Positions 3,665 through 16,320 of a DNA stretch of 64,000 nt are shown one piece after another. A program made the position numbers and the translations under genes. The notes beneath the pieces were generated by a model, which saw only the letters and a list, made by a program, of their open reading frames with translations, was not told the origin of the DNA and ran no database searches. The stretch is from NCBI GenBank assembly GCA_034433775.1, contig DAOUAI010000032.1, positions 206-64,205 on the forward strand, read 5' to 3'. The stretch's first letter is position 1. Each line of letters opens with the position of its first letter. The stretch is from Dehalococcoidia bacterium. GTDB taxonomy: Bacteria > Chloroflexota > Dehalococcoidia > GIF9 > UBA5629.

Positions 3665-4426
3665 CTAAGAACCAGTTTGAAAAACTTCATCGAGCAATTT
3701 TTTATCTTCGTCAGAGAGAGTAATCTTACTGAACAAGTCAGGACGTCGCTTAGCCGTCCGCATCAGACGCTGCTGGCGTCGCCATCTGGCAATGGCACCA
3801 TGGTCGCCAGAAAGAAGAACCGGTGGAATTGCCCAGCCCCGATAGACTGCTGGACGAGTATACTGTGGATACTCTAGCAAACCTTCAGTATAGGAGTCTT
3901 CACTCAACGAAGCTTCTGAACCAAGCACACCTGGTAAAAGCCTTACCACACTATCCAATACAACCATGGCAGCTACCTCACCCCCGCTTAACAAGTAATC
4001 ACCAATGCTAATCTCATCGGTGGTTAAATGCTCTGCAACCCTTTCATCAACACCTTCATAGCGCCCACAGATTAATATCATCGATTCATAGCTAGCCAGC
4101 TGCCTGGCGATTTCCTGAGTAAAAAGCCGTCCCTGTGGACTAAGCAAAACAACAGGCACACATGCTAAACCTACCTCCATCTTAATAGCCTCAACAGCCT
4201 CAAATATGGGTTCCGGCTTTAACACCATACCAGCACCGCCACCGTAAGGATAATCATCGACGGTGCGATGCTTATCGTGGGCATAATCGCGGATATTATG
4301 GAGCCTTATATCAACGAGATGGCGTTCTATGGCTCTCCTAACAATACTCGAGCCGATGAAACCATCAAACATCTGAGGGAATAAAGTTAGAACATCGATA
4401 CGCATTTTTACCTTACTGCTACTCAT
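3665..4426 (-). CDS. trmD: tRNA (guanine37-N1)-methyltransferase
   Basis: [13 protein letters not shown] start and SPOUT knot region; conserved synteny with rplS. Confidence 0.9.
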
Positions 4427-4898
4427 GCCCTCTACCGCTAAGAATCTCTATAGCATGCGGTAAGACAGGCAAAATGACCTCAAAACATTCCTTCACAGCT
4501 GCTGGACTACCGGGGAGATTGATGATCAAACACTTGCCCCGAATTCCAGCAACAGCCCGACTCAGTAATGCTTCCGGTTTCTTCTTTGCTGTTTCTATTC
4601 TCATCGCCTCACTCAAACCAGGAACCGTTTTATCAAGCACCATCGAAGTTGCCTCTGGAGTAACATCCCTAGCTGCCAATCCTGTGCCACCACTGGTCAC
4701 AATAAGATCGATACCTTCGACATCGGCCCACTCCTTCAAAGTAGCAGAAATAATATCAACTTCATCAGGTACTATGGCATACCTAACTATCTTAATACCA
4801 AGCTGGCTGATGTATTCACAGACCACCTTGCCACTCTCATCCCCCCTCTCACCACGCCAGCTCCTATCGCTTACCACCAATACTCCACCGAGCAACAT
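4419..4898 (-). CDS. mogA: molybdopterin adenylyltransferase MogA/MoaB family
   Basis: SDR-x-GxD N-terminus, TSGGTG motif, NLPGSP motif; 159 aa. Confidence 0.8.
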
Positions 4899-5058
4899 CT
4901 GTTTATTTTACCACATCCAATAAAAGCTTGAAACCGCTTGGTACCTTGACCTTTAACTACACAAAACAAGAACATCGTTTTTACACAATATATAGGTACT
5001 CATCTAAAAAATTGACTATATATCGACCAGAGCCAAGGTTACACAACTTTCTTGCGTG

Positions 5059-5164
5059 GTGAAAAATTGTGAAAAACCGTGAAAATTGGTGGGGAGGGTA
5101 TTGACAAATTGGGTAACAAGTGTTTTATAATGGTGAAAAGTGGGAAAAAGTGGGAAAAAGGAGG
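5059..5164 (+). promoter_or_regulatory. sigma70-like promoter flanked by phased GTGAA/GTGGG repeats (MraZ-box-like operator array) and an RBS
   Basis: GTGAA at 5059, 5069, 5079 and GTGGG at 5089 (exact 10-bp period); -35 TTGACA 5101-5106; -10 TATAAT 5126-5131; GTGAA 5133, GTGGG 5140, GTGGG 5150; RBS AAGGAGG 5158-5164; ATG 5172. Confidence 0.5.
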
Positions 5165-5171
5165 TAGCACG

Positions 5172-5534
5172 ATGATTGATTGCACGCAATATCGGATAGG
5201 TAACAGCAAGTTATTACGTTTTTTAAGGGACAACAATCACAACAATCTCGAGTTGCAGCTAATCCGCTTTTGGTCTCGCCATCCCCGAGCCAAGCTAAGC
5301 CTCTGTGCTATTGCCTGTGCTTTAGATGTAGCGAAAATCAATCTGAGAGATGCCATTAAGTCACTGGTCATCAAGGGGATACTTCAAGAACAAAACAATG
5401 GCAACGGACTGATCACCTACTCACTGAGTGAAAAGGCAGAGATCCAAGAATGCATAGAGGAGCTGACCAAACTGGACTGGCGTGAGGTCAAAATACTGGA
5501 ACGCCAGCTTGTAGGTGAGGCTATCTTAGTCTAA
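5172..5534 (+). CDS. hypothetical protein, first gene of the mraZ operon (120 aa)
   Basis: ATG 7 nt after AAGGAGG; the 5' part of the listed ORF (5079..5171) reads through the promoter itself and is not coding; no recognisable family. Confidence 0.5.
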   Translation: MIDCTQYRIGNSKLLRFLRDNNHNNLELQLIRFWSRHPRAKLSLCAIACALDVAKINLRDAIKSLVIKGILQEQNNGNGLITYSLSEKAEIQECIEELTKLDWREVKILERQLVGEAILV

Positions 5535-5539
5535 TAAAA

Positions 5540-5965
5540 ATGTTCCTTGGCGAGTACGAATACAAGGTCGACAGCAAAGGCAGACTGCCACTACCCCCGA
5601 AATTCAGACAAGAACTCGGAGGGGAATTGATGCTTACTAGGGGCGCAGAAAGGTGCATCGTCCTTTATCCGGCAGCAGAATGGCATAAGCTGGCTGAAAC
5701 ACTGGCATCACGTGCTGTTTCCCCAAACAAACTGCGTAAGCTAAACCGTGTACTTTTCGGCGCTGCATTCAGCCTAACGCTCGATAGACAGGGCAGAGTT
5801 GCACTTCCACAGCCGCTACGTCAGTACTCTCAGATAGAAGACATAGCTGTTATTGTCGGTGCCAACAACTGCATCGAAATATGGAATCCTGACCTCTGGA
5901 ACGCCGAAAAGGTATCTGCCGAGGAACAAGTCTGGCAGATCATAGAGAGCCTTGAGGGACAGTAA
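5540..5965 (+). CDS. mraZ: transcriptional regulator MraZ
   Basis: Two MraZ repeats (YKVDSKGRLPLP... and DRQGRVALP...); position first in the dcw cluster. Confidence 0.9.
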   Translation: MFLGEYEYKVDSKGRLPLPPKFRQELGGELMLTRGAERCIVLYPAAEWHKLAETLASRAVSPNKLRKLNRVLFGAAFSLTLDRQGRVALPQPLRQYSQIEDIAVIVGANNCIEIWNPDLWNAEKVSAEEQVWQIIESLEGQ

Positions 5966-6927
5966 TGAGTTTAACCATCATGCTACCAACCCATAGACCG
6001 GTAATGTTAAATGAGGTTATAGAAGCGCTGCAGGTCGAAGCCGGGAAACGTTATGTGGACTGCACGCTTGGCTCAGGAGGACATGCTGAAGCGATCCTTA
6101 AAAGAATTATGCCTTACGGGCAACTCCTCGGTATCGATACTGATATCGAAGCTATCAACCTTGTCAGAAGTAGACTTGCAAACTACGCAGGGTCCATGAT
6201 AATAGTGCACGATAACTTTGCCAACCTCAGTGCTATTTGCAAGGAAAACAATTTTTTGCCAGTGCATGGCATTCTCATCGACCTCGGTGTCTCTACAACA
6301 CAATTAGATGTACCGGATCGGGGTTTCAGCTTCCGCTACGATGCCTGCTTGGACATGCGTTTTAATAGGGCAGAAAGATTAACGGCCGCTGACATTGTAA
6401 ACACCTTCTCCGAAGAAGAACTAAATCATCTGATCCGCACATACGGAGAGGAAAGATATAGCCGACAGATAGCGCGTAATATTGTCAAGAACCGCCCTAT
6501 AGTCAGCACACTCCATCTGGCACGCGTTGTAGAACAAGTTACCGGTCACCGCCGTGGCAGAATCCATCCTGCAACCAAGACTTTTCTAGCACTACGCATC
6601 GCTGTTAATCACGAACTGGAAAACCTGGCCGCAGTCTTAAAACAAGCTGTGGAATGCCTTGAATCTGGCGGACGGTTGGTCGTTATTAGTTATCACTCCC
6701 TTGAAGACCGAATCGTAAAGCAATTTATAAATCGAGAAAGCAAGGGGTGTATCTGTCCGCCTGGAACCCCAGTCTGCCAATGTAACCATGTGCCCAGATT
6801 AAAAATAATATCAAAGAAGCCTGTTAGACCTTCTAGCAATGAAATCGGGGCTAACCCTAGGAGTCGCAGTGCTAAACTCAGAATAGCAGAACGCATTAAT
6901 ATTCAGCAGGAGGCTAACCAGTCTTAG
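5965..6927 (+). CDS. rsmH: 16S rRNA (cytosine1402-N4)-methyltransferase RsmH/MraW
   Basis: HRPVMLNEVIEAL, DCTLGSGGHAEAIL SAM-binding motif; start overlaps mraZ stop. Confidence 0.9.
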   Translation: MSLTIMLPTHRPVMLNEVIEALQVEAGKRYVDCTLGSGGHAEAILKRIMPYGQLLGIDTDIEAINLVRSRLANYAGSMIIVHDNFANLSAICKENNFLPVHGILIDLGVSTTQLDVPDRGFSFRYDACLDMRFNRAERLTAADIVNTFSEEELNHLIRTYGEERYSRQIARNIVKNRPIVSTLHLARVVEQVTGHRRGRIHPATKTFLALRIAVNHELENLAAVLKQAVECLESGGRLVVISYHSLEDRIVKQFINRESKGCICPPGTPVCQCNHVPRLKIISKKPVRPSSNEIGANPRSRSAKLRIAERINIQQEANQS

Positions 6928-6956: not shown

Positions 6957-8171
6957 ATGAAAAAAGTTATAGCAGCCATCGATGTAGGAACAACAAAGAT
7001 ATGTACCATAGTTGGTACGCTGGACTCGGGAGGCAATATCCAGGTACTCGGAGTTGGCCTTGTACCCTCGCATGGTATGCATAAAGGCATGGTGGTCAAT
7101 GTAGAAGAAGCTCGGGAATCAGTCGCTGAATCAGTGAGACGAGCCGAGCAAGCGAGCGGACTCAAAATAGAAAACGCTTACGTCGGGGTCACCGGGAGGC
7201 ATATAAGTTCTATGAATAGTCACGGAGTTGTTGCCATACCGCGCAATGACCGACTGGTACGACCGGACGACCTTAAGCGAGTCCTGTCCGCTGCTCAACA
7301 AATTAACCTGCCTGATGATAGAAAGATACTCCACGCCATACCACGTGGGTACATGCTAGACAACCAGGAAAGGATCAAAAATCCTGTAGGAATGCATGGT
7401 TTCAGGCTGGACGTAGAAACACACATCATAACCGCAGCTGTAGCCTCGGTACAAAACTTGGTCAAATGCATCCGCAGCGTCGGTGTCGAAATTCAGGACC
7501 TCATCCTGGAACCACTGGCCAGCGGTGAAGCAGTGCTGACACCGGAAGAAAGAGAGGTCGGGGTTATCCTCGCCGATATCGGCGGTGGTACCACCGACAT
7601 AGCAGTATTTAAAGAAGGTAGCATATACCATACATCCGTAATCCCTGTCGCTGGTTATCAAGTAACCAGCGACCTATCCATCGGTTTAGGACTACCTTTC
7701 GAAATTGCCGAAGCGATGAAAAAGAAATATGGCAATGTATACCCTGAGGTGCTCACTAAAAGCCAAGAGACTACTCTCACAGTCGAAGATGGGCACAGCG
7801 TCTCTTACAAAGATCTATGCAGTATCATAAAAGTGCGCATGGAAGAACTCCTTAGACTTATCCTCCTCGAAATGCCAGACTCGAATTATGCTTCTTTAGC
7901 TCCCGCCGGACTGGTACTCACTGGAGGTTCGTCCAAACTTGCAGGGCTTGAAGCTCTAGCCCGAACAACAATCCGCATCCCCACAAGAATTGGTGAGCCC
8001 ATGGGAGTATATGGCATAACGGACATCCTTCATGACCCAGCACACGCCACCGGAGTAGGGCTTTTACTCTGGGGTACAAGAAATCAAGATAAACCAGCAT
8101 GGGAAGCAAGAAAACAAAGCGGGGTTTTCAGTGGCTTTGTAAAGGCACTGAAAAAGTTCTTTGGTGTTTAA
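6957..8171 (+). CDS. ftsA: cell division protein FtsA
   Basis: Actin-like ATPase N-terminus AIDVGTTKICTIVG, DIGGGTTDIAVF phosphate-2 motif; RBS GGGAGG upstream. Confidence 0.9.
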   Translation: MKKVIAAIDVGTTKICTIVGTLDSGGNIQVLGVGLVPSHGMHKGMVVNVEEARESVAESVRRAEQASGLKIENAYVGVTGRHISSMNSHGVVAIPRNDRLVRPDDLKRVLSAAQQINLPDDRKILHAIPRGYMLDNQERIKNPVGMHGFRLDVETHIITAAVASVQNLVKCIRSVGVEIQDLILEPLASGEAVLTPEEREVGVILADIGGGTTDIAVFKEGSIYHTSVIPVAGYQVTSDLSIGLGLPFEIAEAMKKKYGNVYPEVLTKSQETTLTVEDGHSVSYKDLCSIIKVRMEELLRLILLEMPDSNYASLAPAGLVLTGGSSKLAGLEALARTTIRIPTRIGEPMGVYGITDILHDPAHATGVGLLLWGTRNQDKPAWEARKQSGVFSGFVKALKKFFGV

Positions 8172-8209: not shown

Positions 8210-9307
8210 ATGGCTAAATCAACATTCTCTATGGCACCAGCCAGAATTAAGGCTATCGGTATTGGTGGCGGCGGCTCAAATGCTATTACCAGAATGGTCA
8301 GAGAGGGAATCAAAGGTGTCGAGTTTATTACCATGAACACCGATGCCCAGGCTCTCGCCCTCTCCGAAGCACCTATAAGAGTCCAGCTAGGAGAAAAGCT
8401 TACCAGGGGTTTGGGTGCCGGCGGTGACCACACTGTAGGCGCTGCAGCCGCTGAGGAAAGCCGCCAGACTATCCAAGAAGTGGTCTCCGGTGCTGACATG
8501 GTCTTTATCACCGCAGGAATGGGTGGGGGCACCGGCACAGGTGGTATTCCAGTGGTTGCAGAAATAGCCAGGCAAAGTGGCGCTCTTACCATTGGCGTTG
8601 TAACCAAACCATTCAGTTTCGAGGGAACAAGGCGCTCCAAAGTAGCTGAAGAAGGCATTCTGAATCTCTGTGAAAAGGTCGACACACTTATAATAATCCC
8701 GAACGACCGACTCCTCGAACTCTGCGATGCCAAAACAACAGTGGACAATGCCTTCAGGCTGGCTGATGATGTACTCAGGCTTGCAGTCCAAGCTATCGCT
8801 GAAGTGGTAACCGTGCCTGGGCTCATCAACCTAGACTTCGCTGACATCAGATCGATAATGAAGAATGCTGGTCCAGCATGGATGTCCGTAGGACGAGCCA
8901 GTGGCCAGAACAGAGCAGTTGAAGCTGCCAGGGCAGCACTCGCCAGCCCTCTGCTAGATGTTTCTGTAAATGGCGCCAAAGGAGTACTATTCAATGTCAC
9001 CGGTGGCAGCAACCTTACCCTCTTCGAATGCAACGAGGCTGCCGAGGTCATAGCACAGGCAGTTGATCCTGACGCTAACATAATATTTGGCGTCGTTTTC
9101 AATCCACAGATGGAAGACGAGATACAGATTACAATAATAGCCACTGGATTCACTGCACAATACGGAGCCGGTGTGCCCACAGAGGCTGAGCTACGTCGCT
9201 TGCTCCGTGGTGTTGCCGAAGATAGCTTAGACGTCCCGTCTTTTCTACGACGTGCACCGCAGTACCCCGCTGCGCGCCCTGCACCTGCCCCCAAAATGCC
9301 CCTGTAA
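8210..9307 (+). CDS. ftsZ: cell division GTPase FtsZ
   Basis: GIGGGGSNAI and GMGGGTGTGG tubulin signature motifs; RBS AAGGAGG upstream. Confidence 0.95.
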   Translation: MAKSTFSMAPARIKAIGIGGGGSNAITRMVREGIKGVEFITMNTDAQALALSEAPIRVQLGEKLTRGLGAGGDHTVGAAAAEESRQTIQEVVSGADMVFITAGMGGGTGTGGIPVVAEIARQSGALTIGVVTKPFSFEGTRRSKVAEEGILNLCEKVDTLIIIPNDRLLELCDAKTTVDNAFRLADDVLRLAVQAIAEVVTVPGLINLDFADIRSIMKNAGPAWMSVGRASGQNRAVEAARAALASPLLDVSVNGAKGVLFNVTGGSNLTLFECNEAAEVIAQAVDPDANIIFGVVFNPQMEDEIQITIIATGFTAQYGAGVPTEAELRRLLRGVAEDSLDVPSFLRRAPQYPAARPAPAPKMPL

Positions 9308-9330
9308 CCCCCAGTCACCCCCTCCCCAAC

Positions 9331-9364
9331 AGAGCGGCAACTTAAAGTTGCCGCTCTGTTTTTA
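9331..9364 (+). terminator. rho-independent terminator after ftsZ
   Basis: Perfect 11-bp stem AGAGCGGCAAC/GTTGCCGCTCT with 5-nt loop, followed by GTTTTT. Confidence 0.7.
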
Positions 9365-9378
9365 AATTCAACTTCGAG

Positions 9379-9407
9379 TTGACAATATCTATATATTGGG
9401 TTATAAT
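9379..9407 (+). promoter_or_regulatory. sigma70-like promoter of nrdR-nrdJ with an AT-rich imperfect palindrome (candidate NrdR box) in the spacer
   Basis: TTGACA 9379-9384, 17-nt spacer, TATAAT 9402-9407; CAATATCTATATATTG at 9383-9398. Confidence 0.4.
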
Positions 9408-16023: not shown

Positions 16024-16098
16024 GCGGGTGTAATTCAGCGGCAGAATGCTTGCTTCCCAAGCAAGACGTCGGGAGTTCGAATCTCCTCACCCGCTCCA
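16024..16098 (+). tRNA. tRNA-Gly(CCC)
   Basis: Hand-folded cloverleaf: acceptor GCGGGTG/CACCCGC, anticodon loop TTCCCAA, T-loop TTCGAAT, 3' CCA encoded. Confidence 0.85.
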
Positions 16099-16119
16099 CA
16101 ATATTCCTGAGCTAGTAAA

Positions 16120-16320
16120 TTATCGTAACTCCACCTTATGATTTTCACCCGTTCCGTGCTCACACTCTTCACTTTCACAACACTCGCCCACTGCGCCTTC
16201 CATAGTGTACCCACAATTGGGACAGACTATTTTCTCGTCTGTGACCATAGTATCACCTTCTTCTATATAAAATTTATCCAAATCGCCTAAACACTTAGGA
16301 CACACCCACGACCTGACCAA
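16120..16320 (-). CDS. small zinc-ribbon protein (66 aa)
   Basis: CPKC...CPNC plus CCESEECEH cluster; no overlap with other genes. Confidence 0.5.
   Translation of the reverse strand: MVRSWVCPKCLGDLDKFYIEEGDTMVTDEKIVCPNCGYTMEGAVGECCESEECEHGTGENHKVELR

Follow-up and report, generated by a model that had tools for sequence, protein, structure and literature searches.

The DNA analysed here is a 64,000-nucleotide (nt) stretch of a contig from a Dehalococcoidia bacterium (the window), and our subject is the promoter region that precedes its division genes. These genes are predicted to form a five-gene unit, a minimal cluster of division and cell wall (dcw) genes in which a 120-aa winged-helix gene is followed, after a gap of 5 nt, by mraZ, rsmH, ftsA and ftsZ. 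The operon contains no mur, other fts or peptidoglycan genes, and a promoter scan found no strong internal promoter within it. A preliminary description of this DNA had proposed a stripped-down dcw operon, and such an operon is indeed present, with a predicted terminator following ftsZ. Reduced arrangements of this kind have already been described for Dehalococcoidales and SAR202 and likened to those of Mollicutes, and the dcw cluster of the window's lineage has been reported to be without wall-synthesis genes (PMC10608941). One trait that is typical of MraZ-controlled units, if not strictly defining, is absent: mraZ is not the first gene, since the winged-helix gene intervenes. The preliminary description also took the direct repeats around the promoter for an operator of MraZ. 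For part of these repeats this is probably correct, and we consider it likely that positions 5101-5164 comprise the promoter of the unit together with an operator of four MraZ boxes, through which the unit would be autorepressed.

The promoter stretch (5056-5174) reads GTGGTGAAAAATTGTGAAAAACCGTGAAAATTGGTGGGGAGGGTATTGACAAATTGGGTAACAAGTGTTTTATAATGGTGAAAAGTGGGAAAAAGTGGGAAAAAGGAGGTAGCACGATG. On its plus strand GTGAA starts at 5059, 5069, 5079 and 5133, and GTGGG at 5089, 5140 and 5150, while neither pentamer occurs on its minus strand. All seven had been listed previously, the first four with an exact 10-bp period, and both statements hold. An A-tract had been said to follow every repeat; this fails at 5089, where the unit is GTGGGGAGGG and no A-tract follows it. 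Tandem Repeats Finder detected period-10 arrays at 5059-5085 and 5136-5160, and further boxes lie in phase, namely TTGG at 5109, GTGT at 5120 and ATGG at 5130. The promoter hexamers TTGACA and TATAAT were located by direct pattern search; a generic promoter scan had overlooked the pair at 5101-5131 because its spacers were limited to 16-18 nt, and the spacer here is 19 nt. Transcription is predicted to start near 5138-5140, and the GTGGG at 5140 overlaps this position, as had been proposed for the downstream repeats.

Repeats of this kind might arise by chance in an AT-rich, low-complexity intergenic region, and this one is A-rich, with 37% G+C. Among 20,000 dinucleotide-shuffled versions of this 273-bp region, at least seven GTGRR motifs were obtained with P = 4e-4, and a 10-bp phased run of at least four was obtained in none (0/20,000). 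The promoter array is also the sole phased GTGRR run of at least three units on either strand of the window, and the pattern TGK-N7-TGK-N7-TGK-N7-TGK is present as a single copy (both strands), at 5121-5153, with about 0.15 copies expected by chance. Because of the shuffling results, and because the core boxes stay conserved among 77 distinct orthologous promoters whose flanks have diverged, we regard the chance explanation as refuted and its probability as virtually negligible. The pattern GTGG-N6-GTGG has seven copies in the window, and only the copy at 5140-5153 falls outside a long open reading frame (ORF); the other six were considered as regulon sites and rejected, as every one lies inside a long ORF.

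The orthologous promoters were drawn from Dehalococcoidia metagenome-assembled genomes (MAGs) and from metagenomes. We could anchor 93 of them, corresponding to 77 distinct sequences, which fall into 36 clusters when grouped at 85% identity. In 74 of the 93, TATAAT follows a spacer of 19 nt, and in another 14 CATAAT follows one of 18 nt. The 19-nt spacer (5107-5125), which separates perfect TTGACA and TATAAT hexamers, is thus firmly held, and the nrdR promoter of the same window has a spacer of 17 nt. The conservation of so suboptimal a spacer suggests a regulatory constraint. Across the 77 promoters, NTG[GT] was frequent at exactly six offsets from the start of the -10 hexamer, against a background of 2.3% per position, and we refer to these six sites as U1, S1, S2, S3, D1 and D2 (Table 1). 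Four of them, S2, S3, D1 and D2, have a 10-bp period and span the -10 hexamer, reaching 6 nt ahead of it and 22 nt past it. Each is kept in 79-97% of the promoters, and counting by clusters gave a similar picture (S2, 31/36; S3, 34/36; D1, 33/36; D2, 34/36). The spacing between D1 and D2 is constant at 10 bp across the orthologous promoters, and D1 lies 8 nt after the -10 hexamer in 21 of 22 genome loci.

The variation tolerated within the boxes is narrow. Among relatives, D1 and D2 vary solely by a change of G to A at position 1, and A at position 4 was found in none of the 77 promoters for either box. The form ATGG, seen at S3, therefore also occurs at D1 and D2 in relatives, which suggests that it is an acceptable form of the box. 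A scoring matrix trained on the D1 and D2 boxes of relatives, with the window's own lineage excluded, gave 17.3 bits at both 5140 and 5150, 9.5 at 5130, 6.2 at 5089 and 2.8 at 5109, and the score of D1 places it in the top 0.004% of window positions. An MraZ operator is expected to consist of at least three direct (G)TG(G/T) repeats about 10 bp apart, and the boxes at 5120, 5130, 5140 and 5150 have this form. They are also located where an MraZ operator would be expected, at the predicted promoter of a unit that encodes MraZ, overlapping the -10 hexamer and the predicted start. S2 and S3, which straddle the -10 hexamer, were left out of the preliminary description together with S1, as was the fact that a winged-helix gene and not mraZ comes first.

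The two remaining sites behave differently. U1 was present in 47 of 60 loci that carry the winged-helix gene in its short form, in 3 of 14 loci with a long variant of this gene and in 1 of 3 loci lacking it, and S1 was present in 45 of the 60 short-gene loci and 3 of the 14 long-variant loci, so that both are mostly missing from the latter. Lying 20 bp apart on either side of the -35 hexamer, U1 and S1 appear to be optional auxiliary sites of one subclade, S1 being a weak and subclade-specific box.

Table 1. Predicted features of the promoter, the five-gene unit and its neighbours. Offsets are relative to the start of the -10 hexamer, and counts refer to the 77 distinct promoters.
Feature	Position	Strand	Remarks
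GTGAAAA(A), three units	5059..5088	+	exact 10-bp period; best read as a lineage-specific form of phased A-tracts
U1, GTGGG	5089..5093	+	offset -37; NTG[GT] 51/77, GTGG 45/77; 12 nt before the first base of the -35 hexamer
-35 hexamer, TTGACA	5101..5106	+	surrounding GGTATTGACAAA nearly invariant among relatives
S1, TTGG	5109..5112	+	offset -17; NTGG 48/77 (GTGG 23, ATGG 14, TTGG 8, CTGG 3)
S2, GTGT	5120..5123	+	offset -6; NTG[GT] 61/77, including GTGT 44 and ATGT 14
-10 hexamer, TATAAT	5126..5131	+	19 nt past the -35 hexamer
S3, ATGG	5130..5133	+	offset +4; ATGG 75/77; shares the last two bases of the -10 hexamer
GTGAA	5133..5137	+	out of phase; GTGA here in 2/77
D1, GTGGG	5140..5144	+	offset +14; GTGG 70/77, ATGG 4/77; at the predicted transcription start
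D2, GTGGG	5150..5154	+	offset +24; GTGG 71/77, ATGG 4/77; 10 bp past D1
Shine-Dalgarno, GGAGG, of the first gene	5160..5164	+	next in-phase position past D2
Winged-helix gene, 120 aa	5172..5534	+	ATG at 5172; GGAGG at 5160; first gene of the unit
mraZ	5540..5965	+	Pfam MraZ, E = 3.6e-35; TIGR00242, 109.7 bits (cut-off 98.35)
rsmH (mraW)	5965..6927	+	Pfam Methyltransf_5, E = 1.5e-111
ftsA	6957..8171	+	Pfam FtsA and SHS2_FTSA
ftsZ	8210..9307	+	Pfam Tubulin and FtsZ_C
Intrinsic terminator	9328..9368	+	hairpin 9328-9360, 15-bp stem with 8 G-C pairs, then T run; after ftsZ
rplS		-	neighbour
trmD	3665..4426	-	neighbour
MoCF/MogA-like gene	4419..4898	-	neighbour

We also considered whether the boxes are conserved for what they encode. 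A 151-aa extended ORF can be read from the GTG at 5079, and some database homologues carry N-terminal extensions. This coding explanation was discarded for two reasons: the interval between the boxes and the start codon changes by numbers of nucleotides not divisible by 3, and the boxes are found in front of mraZ as well. The distance from the -10 hexamer to the start codon ranges from 38 to 44 nt, without keeping the reading frame, and the conservation of the boxes therefore does not come from coding.

A different explanation would dispense with a repressor altogether, the purine-rich GTGGGAAAAA units acting as a leader-RNA element or translation enhancer and the remainder being promoter architecture, such as an UP element and a discriminator. 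D1 and D2 would lie inside the predicted 33-nt 5′ leader, beside the Shine-Dalgarno sequence, the A-rich leader is unstructured, and the phased A-tracts upstream of the promoter are conserved. However, the leader gave no Rfam match at E <= 1 and no stable fold (z-score 0.34), conservation is higher in the GTGG cores than in the A-rich spacers between them, the cores keep a strict 10-bp register, and S2 and S3 are both located upstream of the predicted start. Moreover, in E. coli the identical motif serves as a DNA operator (PMC7761207). We thus consider a role confined to the leader and promoter to be highly improbable.

The four core boxes are conserved across the 77 promoters; the upstream GTGAA units are not. 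GTGN at 5059, 5069 and 5079 was found only in the window and two relatives, and 72 of the 77 promoters have it at none of the three positions. The first relative is the closest genome, a Dehalococcoidia MAG (L001, contig DAOUCT010000072.1) whose winged-helix protein and MraZ are 93% and 99% identical to those of the window; the second (L025, contig Ga0078972_1000844) has an MraZ of 98% identity and TTGA in place of one unit of the three. Each upstream GTGAA scored about -0.5 bits on the matrix, some 18 bits below D1 and D2, and the units depart from the (G)TG(G/T) core in having A as their fourth base, the box cores in the literature being GTG(G/T) (PMC12957436). In relatives, the same region holds runs of at least four A that start at -67 to -65 and at -56 to -54 from the start of the -10 hexamer. 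AAA follows at about -44 and -33, the period being close to 11 bp, and no GTG is found on these upstream A-tracts. The A-tracts of the window start at 5062, 5072 and 5082. These observations indicate that A/T tracts upstream of the -35 hexamer are phased and conserved in position, as expected of an UP element or phased A-tract, and the GTGAA units are best read as such tracts that gained a GTG prefix in one lineage. The conserved tracts themselves are most likely an UP-element-like or bent-DNA feature of the promoter, and as MraZ sites the GTGAA units would be very weak at best. The UP elements and A-tract bends of strong sigma-70 promoters likewise have A- and T-tracts at every helical turn upstream of the -35 hexamer, in conserved positions; unlike these, the window's lineage has a GTG before each tract, hence the resemblance to MraZ boxes. 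As this case shows, a repeat that strikes the eye, here GTGAA in triplicate, may be the part of a genuine element that is conserved least.

The preliminary description had counted all of these repeats, including three after the -10 hexamer, as one MraZ array. This is upheld for the boxes at 5140 and 5150, to which S2 and S3 can now be added, and it is not upheld for the upstream GTGAA units or for the GTGAA at 5133, which stands 7 bp from the next repeat instead of 10. It might still be argued that the whole of 5059-5154 is one extended array, with an MraZ oligomer or filament on both flanks wrapping the promoter. The exact 10-bp period of 5059, 5069, 5079 and 5089 in the window's lineage is the geometry of the four boxes of M. 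genitalium, TG(G/T) cores recur every 10-11 bp from 5089 to 5150 except at the -35 hexamer, and MraZ at high concentration accepts longer spacers between boxes (PMC12957436). Against this stand the near absence of the GTGAA units from the other promoters, including the TTGA in L025, the 11-bp period of the GTG-free tracts in relatives, and the A at position 4, which is never seen in the conserved boxes. An extended array is, in our judgement, unlikely.

The evidence that the core boxes belong to mraZ comes from loci in which the gene order differs. Three loci lack the winged-helix gene (L055, L097 and L102) and a fourth (L091) retains a deletion remnant only, and all four have kept the promoter together with two to three boxes, GTGG or ATGG, spaced by 10 bp. 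Those of L055, L097 and L102 come immediately past the -10 hexamer and directly upstream of mraZ, and the register in L055 is that of the window. Most of the window's Dehalococcoidia clade carries the winged-helix gene, whereas a large sister clade does not; there, priA, rplS and trmD (reverse) are followed by mraZ, rsmH, ftsA and ftsZ, and mog is also missing. Three of the four sister-clade loci sampled (L106, L108 and L109) nevertheless have GTGG-N6-(G/A)TGG right past the -10 hexamer and a third G-rich box, which is GGGG in L106 and GTGG in both L108 and L109, in L109 following a spacer of 9 nt. Since loci without the winged-helix gene still have the boxes upstream of mraZ, the boxes travel with mraZ and predate the insertion of this gene. 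The boxes of the three sister-clade loci begin 3-6 nt past the -10 hexamer, and their register relative to it has therefore shifted between the clades; the distance from the boxes to the start of mraZ is about 40-90 nt, longer than in the window's clade.

The MraZ protein of the window has the residues that would be needed to read these boxes. It aligns without gaps to M. genitalium MraZ (PDB 9qlr) and to 1n0e, with D11, K13, R15, D82 and R86 kept, and these five residues are invariant in 15 members of the clade. Thus both DXXXR motifs are present, as are the base-contacting K13, R15 and R86, as expected of the cognate protein. Its phmmer matches to the MraZ chains of the PDB had E-values of 1e-13 to 7e-12, at low identity to the Mycoplasma proteins. 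In the cryo-electron microscopy structure of M. genitalium MraZ, K13, R15 and R86 read T-G-(T/G), one subunit is bound per box, and the four boxes are bound cooperatively (PMC12957436). The restriction of D1 and D2 variation to position 1 fits this mode of reading. We therefore favour a model that follows the M. genitalium precedent, in which MraZ translated from the same transcript would bind S2, S3, D1 and D2 cooperatively, with one subunit per major groove. Bound MraZ would occlude the -10 hexamer and the predicted start at 5138-5140 and so block RNA polymerase, and the result would be negative feedback on the winged-helix gene, mraZ, rsmH, ftsA and ftsZ.

The first gene of the unit encodes a small putative DNA-binding protein with a MarR/ArsR-like winged-helix fold. 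Its AlphaFold2 model comprises a winged helix and two C-terminal helices (mean predicted local distance difference test score, 79.6), and the best PDB matches by Foldseek were members of the MarR family (AdcR, ST1710 and ZitR) and the ArsR/SmtB family (HlyU, SmtB and CadC), with query-normalised template modelling scores of about 0.44-0.58. Searches of Pfam and NCBIfam returned no match above the curated cut-offs and only weak matches to GntR, PaaX and HTH_27. The family is small: a profile search of 1.84 billion representative proteins found 167 members at E <= 0.001, and the 44 homologous protein clusters are about 120 aa each. The gene is stably placed, being syntenic in 23 of 24 genome loci and lying immediately upstream of mraZ in 72 of 80 metagenome loci, which were retrieved through MraZ; two more of these have a version that is 38-39% identical. 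The long variant, with an insertion of about 50 aa, occurs in 14 of 77 distinct loci (L033, L060, L078, L103 and 10 others), and the insertion, whose sequence resembles LEEDDHFLVLKDKDKVIARWSATGVT.EEI, follows the N-terminal MVIDC..QNR segment. By these comparisons it is an undescribed, unannotated and conserved gene that was inserted between the operator and mraZ.

Regulators encoded by a first gene frequently autoregulate, and the boxes could accordingly be the operator of the winged-helix protein, which would control its own operon in place of MraZ. Its gene sits first behind the promoter, its modelled fold is that of a DNA-binding family, and U1 and S1 are common with the short gene and rare with the long variant. 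However, the boxes persist in the gene-less loci and in the sister clade, and they match the experimentally defined MraZ boxes and the layout in E. coli. MarR and ArsR dimers normally bind inverted repeats, and we found no inverted repeat in 5089-5164 or in the consensus of 60 aligned promoters. In addition, a winged-helix paralogue unlinked to mraZ (L024, 3930-4390, in the same MAG as L014) has no box array upstream and only a single GTGG beside its Shine-Dalgarno sequence, which is weakly informative in view of its apparent frameshift. This paralogue lies beside a 573-aa ORF resembling a membrane transporter, and the L014 genes of the same MAG also appear frameshifted, so that assembly errors may be involved. 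Taken together, we find it very unlikely that the winged-helix protein, rather than MraZ, is the ligand of the boxes.

Several points nonetheless weigh against an MraZ operator of four boxes. The transcription start, the binding of MraZ and the direction of regulation are all deduced from the sequence. Only D1 and D2 are fully canonical GTGG boxes, S2 scores poorly on the matrix trained on them, and the conservation of S3 could reflect promoter function alone, given its overlap with the -10 hexamer. One sister-clade locus (L107) showed no clear array within 200 bp. The conserved 19-bp spacer hints at something beyond simple occlusion, and the winged-helix protein, whose gene separates the operator from mraZ, could be the true ligand or share this role. 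There is a small but real chance that the insertion of the winged-helix gene between an ancestral MraZ operator and mraZ brought the division operon under the joint control of two DNA-binding proteins. The 19-bp spacer, the GTGG sites flanking the -35 hexamer and the four GTG(A/G) units of the window's lineage might belong to this second layer of regulation, for which an extended MraZ assembly across the promoter or an interplay between the winged-helix protein and MraZ are possible mechanisms.

The surroundings of the unit are also conserved. The order mog (reverse), winged-helix gene, mraZ, rsmH, ftsA and ftsZ was found in 22 of 24 species-representative genome loci, and in one locus (L023) the operon is kept and a mog match is absent. 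On the minus strand, which is that of the divergent mog, GTGT occurs twice in 4960-4990 at a distance of 24 bp, ATTGTGTAAAAACG...TTTTGTGTAG, and one copy makes up an inverted repeat together with the GTGAAAAA unit at 5066-5079. Downstream, a consensus promoter (TTGACA, 17 nt, TATAAT) lies at 9379-9407 on the plus strand, upstream of nrdR, and its spacer is filled by the 16-bp near-palindrome CAATATCTATATATTG (9382-9397). This palindrome looks like an NrdR box, which would imply autoregulation of nrdR. Over the whole window, GTGRR motifs are unevenly distributed between the strands, with 134 on the plus and 347 on the minus strand (23 and 82 for GTGGG alone). A cluster of eight GTGRR at 16090-16195 on the minus strand, adjoining a tRNA-Gly(CCC) gene (16024-16098), was rejected as an MraZ-like array because it is unphased.

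Our preferred interpretation, an MraZ operator at 5101-5164, would extend the logic of the MraZ box to uncultured Dehalococcoidia that have a Mollicutes-like reduced dcw cluster (mraZ, rsmH, ftsA and ftsZ). The 77 natural variants reveal which changes the boxes tolerate: position 1 may change from G to A, and position 4 never has A. The winged-helix gene, predicted to be co-transcribed with the division genes, is a candidate for an additional division regulator in a lineage that is not yet genetically tractable.

To our knowledge, MraZ operators have been defined experimentally in a few bacteria only, comprising E. coli, B. subtilis, Mollicutes, Burkholderia and Corynebacterium. The promoter Pmra of E. 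coli K-12, whose sequence we read as a control, has TTGACA and TAAACT separated by 17 nt, followed after 7 nt by GTGGG-N5-GTGGG-N5-GTGGG, and the operator is described as three direct repeats of GTGGG (TGGGN) (Eraso et al. 2014, as relayed in PMC7761207 and PMC12957436). The window resembles it in having direct GTGGG repeats with a 10-bp period that begin 7-8 nt past the -10 hexamer and end just before the Shine-Dalgarno sequence and start codon, and in an operon that encodes MraZ, for which autorepression is presumed. It differs in having only two GTGGG, with GTGT and ATGG upstream that straddle the -10 hexamer, a spacer of 19 instead of 17 nt, a winged-helix gene in the first position instead of mraZ, and an operon without mur, fts or peptidoglycan genes apart from ftsA and ftsZ. 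As in E. coli, the repeats of B. cenocepacia, four in number, are found downstream of the -10 hexamer and overlap the transcription start (PMC7761207). The mra promoter of B. subtilis contains three MraZ-binding GTGG[A/T]G repeats with 4-nt spacers, which were removed by a swap of the -35/-10 region and hence appear to overlap the core promoter (bioRxiv 10.1101/2022.02.09.479790). The GTGG core, the 10-bp period and the position at an mra promoter are shared with the window, whereas B. subtilis has three boxes, other flanks and mraZ as its first gene.

Further likenesses are to M. genitalium, whose operator consists of AAAGTGT-N3 three times and then AAAGTGG, with the transcription start inside box 1 (PMC12957436). 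Both loci have four boxes with a 10-bp period and A-rich flanks, the window containing AAAGTGG twice, and in both the transcription start, which for the window is predicted, lies at a box. The minimal dcw unit of mraZ, rsmH, ftsA and ftsZ is likewise common to the two, and K13, R15 and R86 of MraZ are conserved with identical numbering. The boxes of M. genitalium all lie downstream of the -10 hexamer, however, whereas in the window two of the four bracket it and one of them starts with A.

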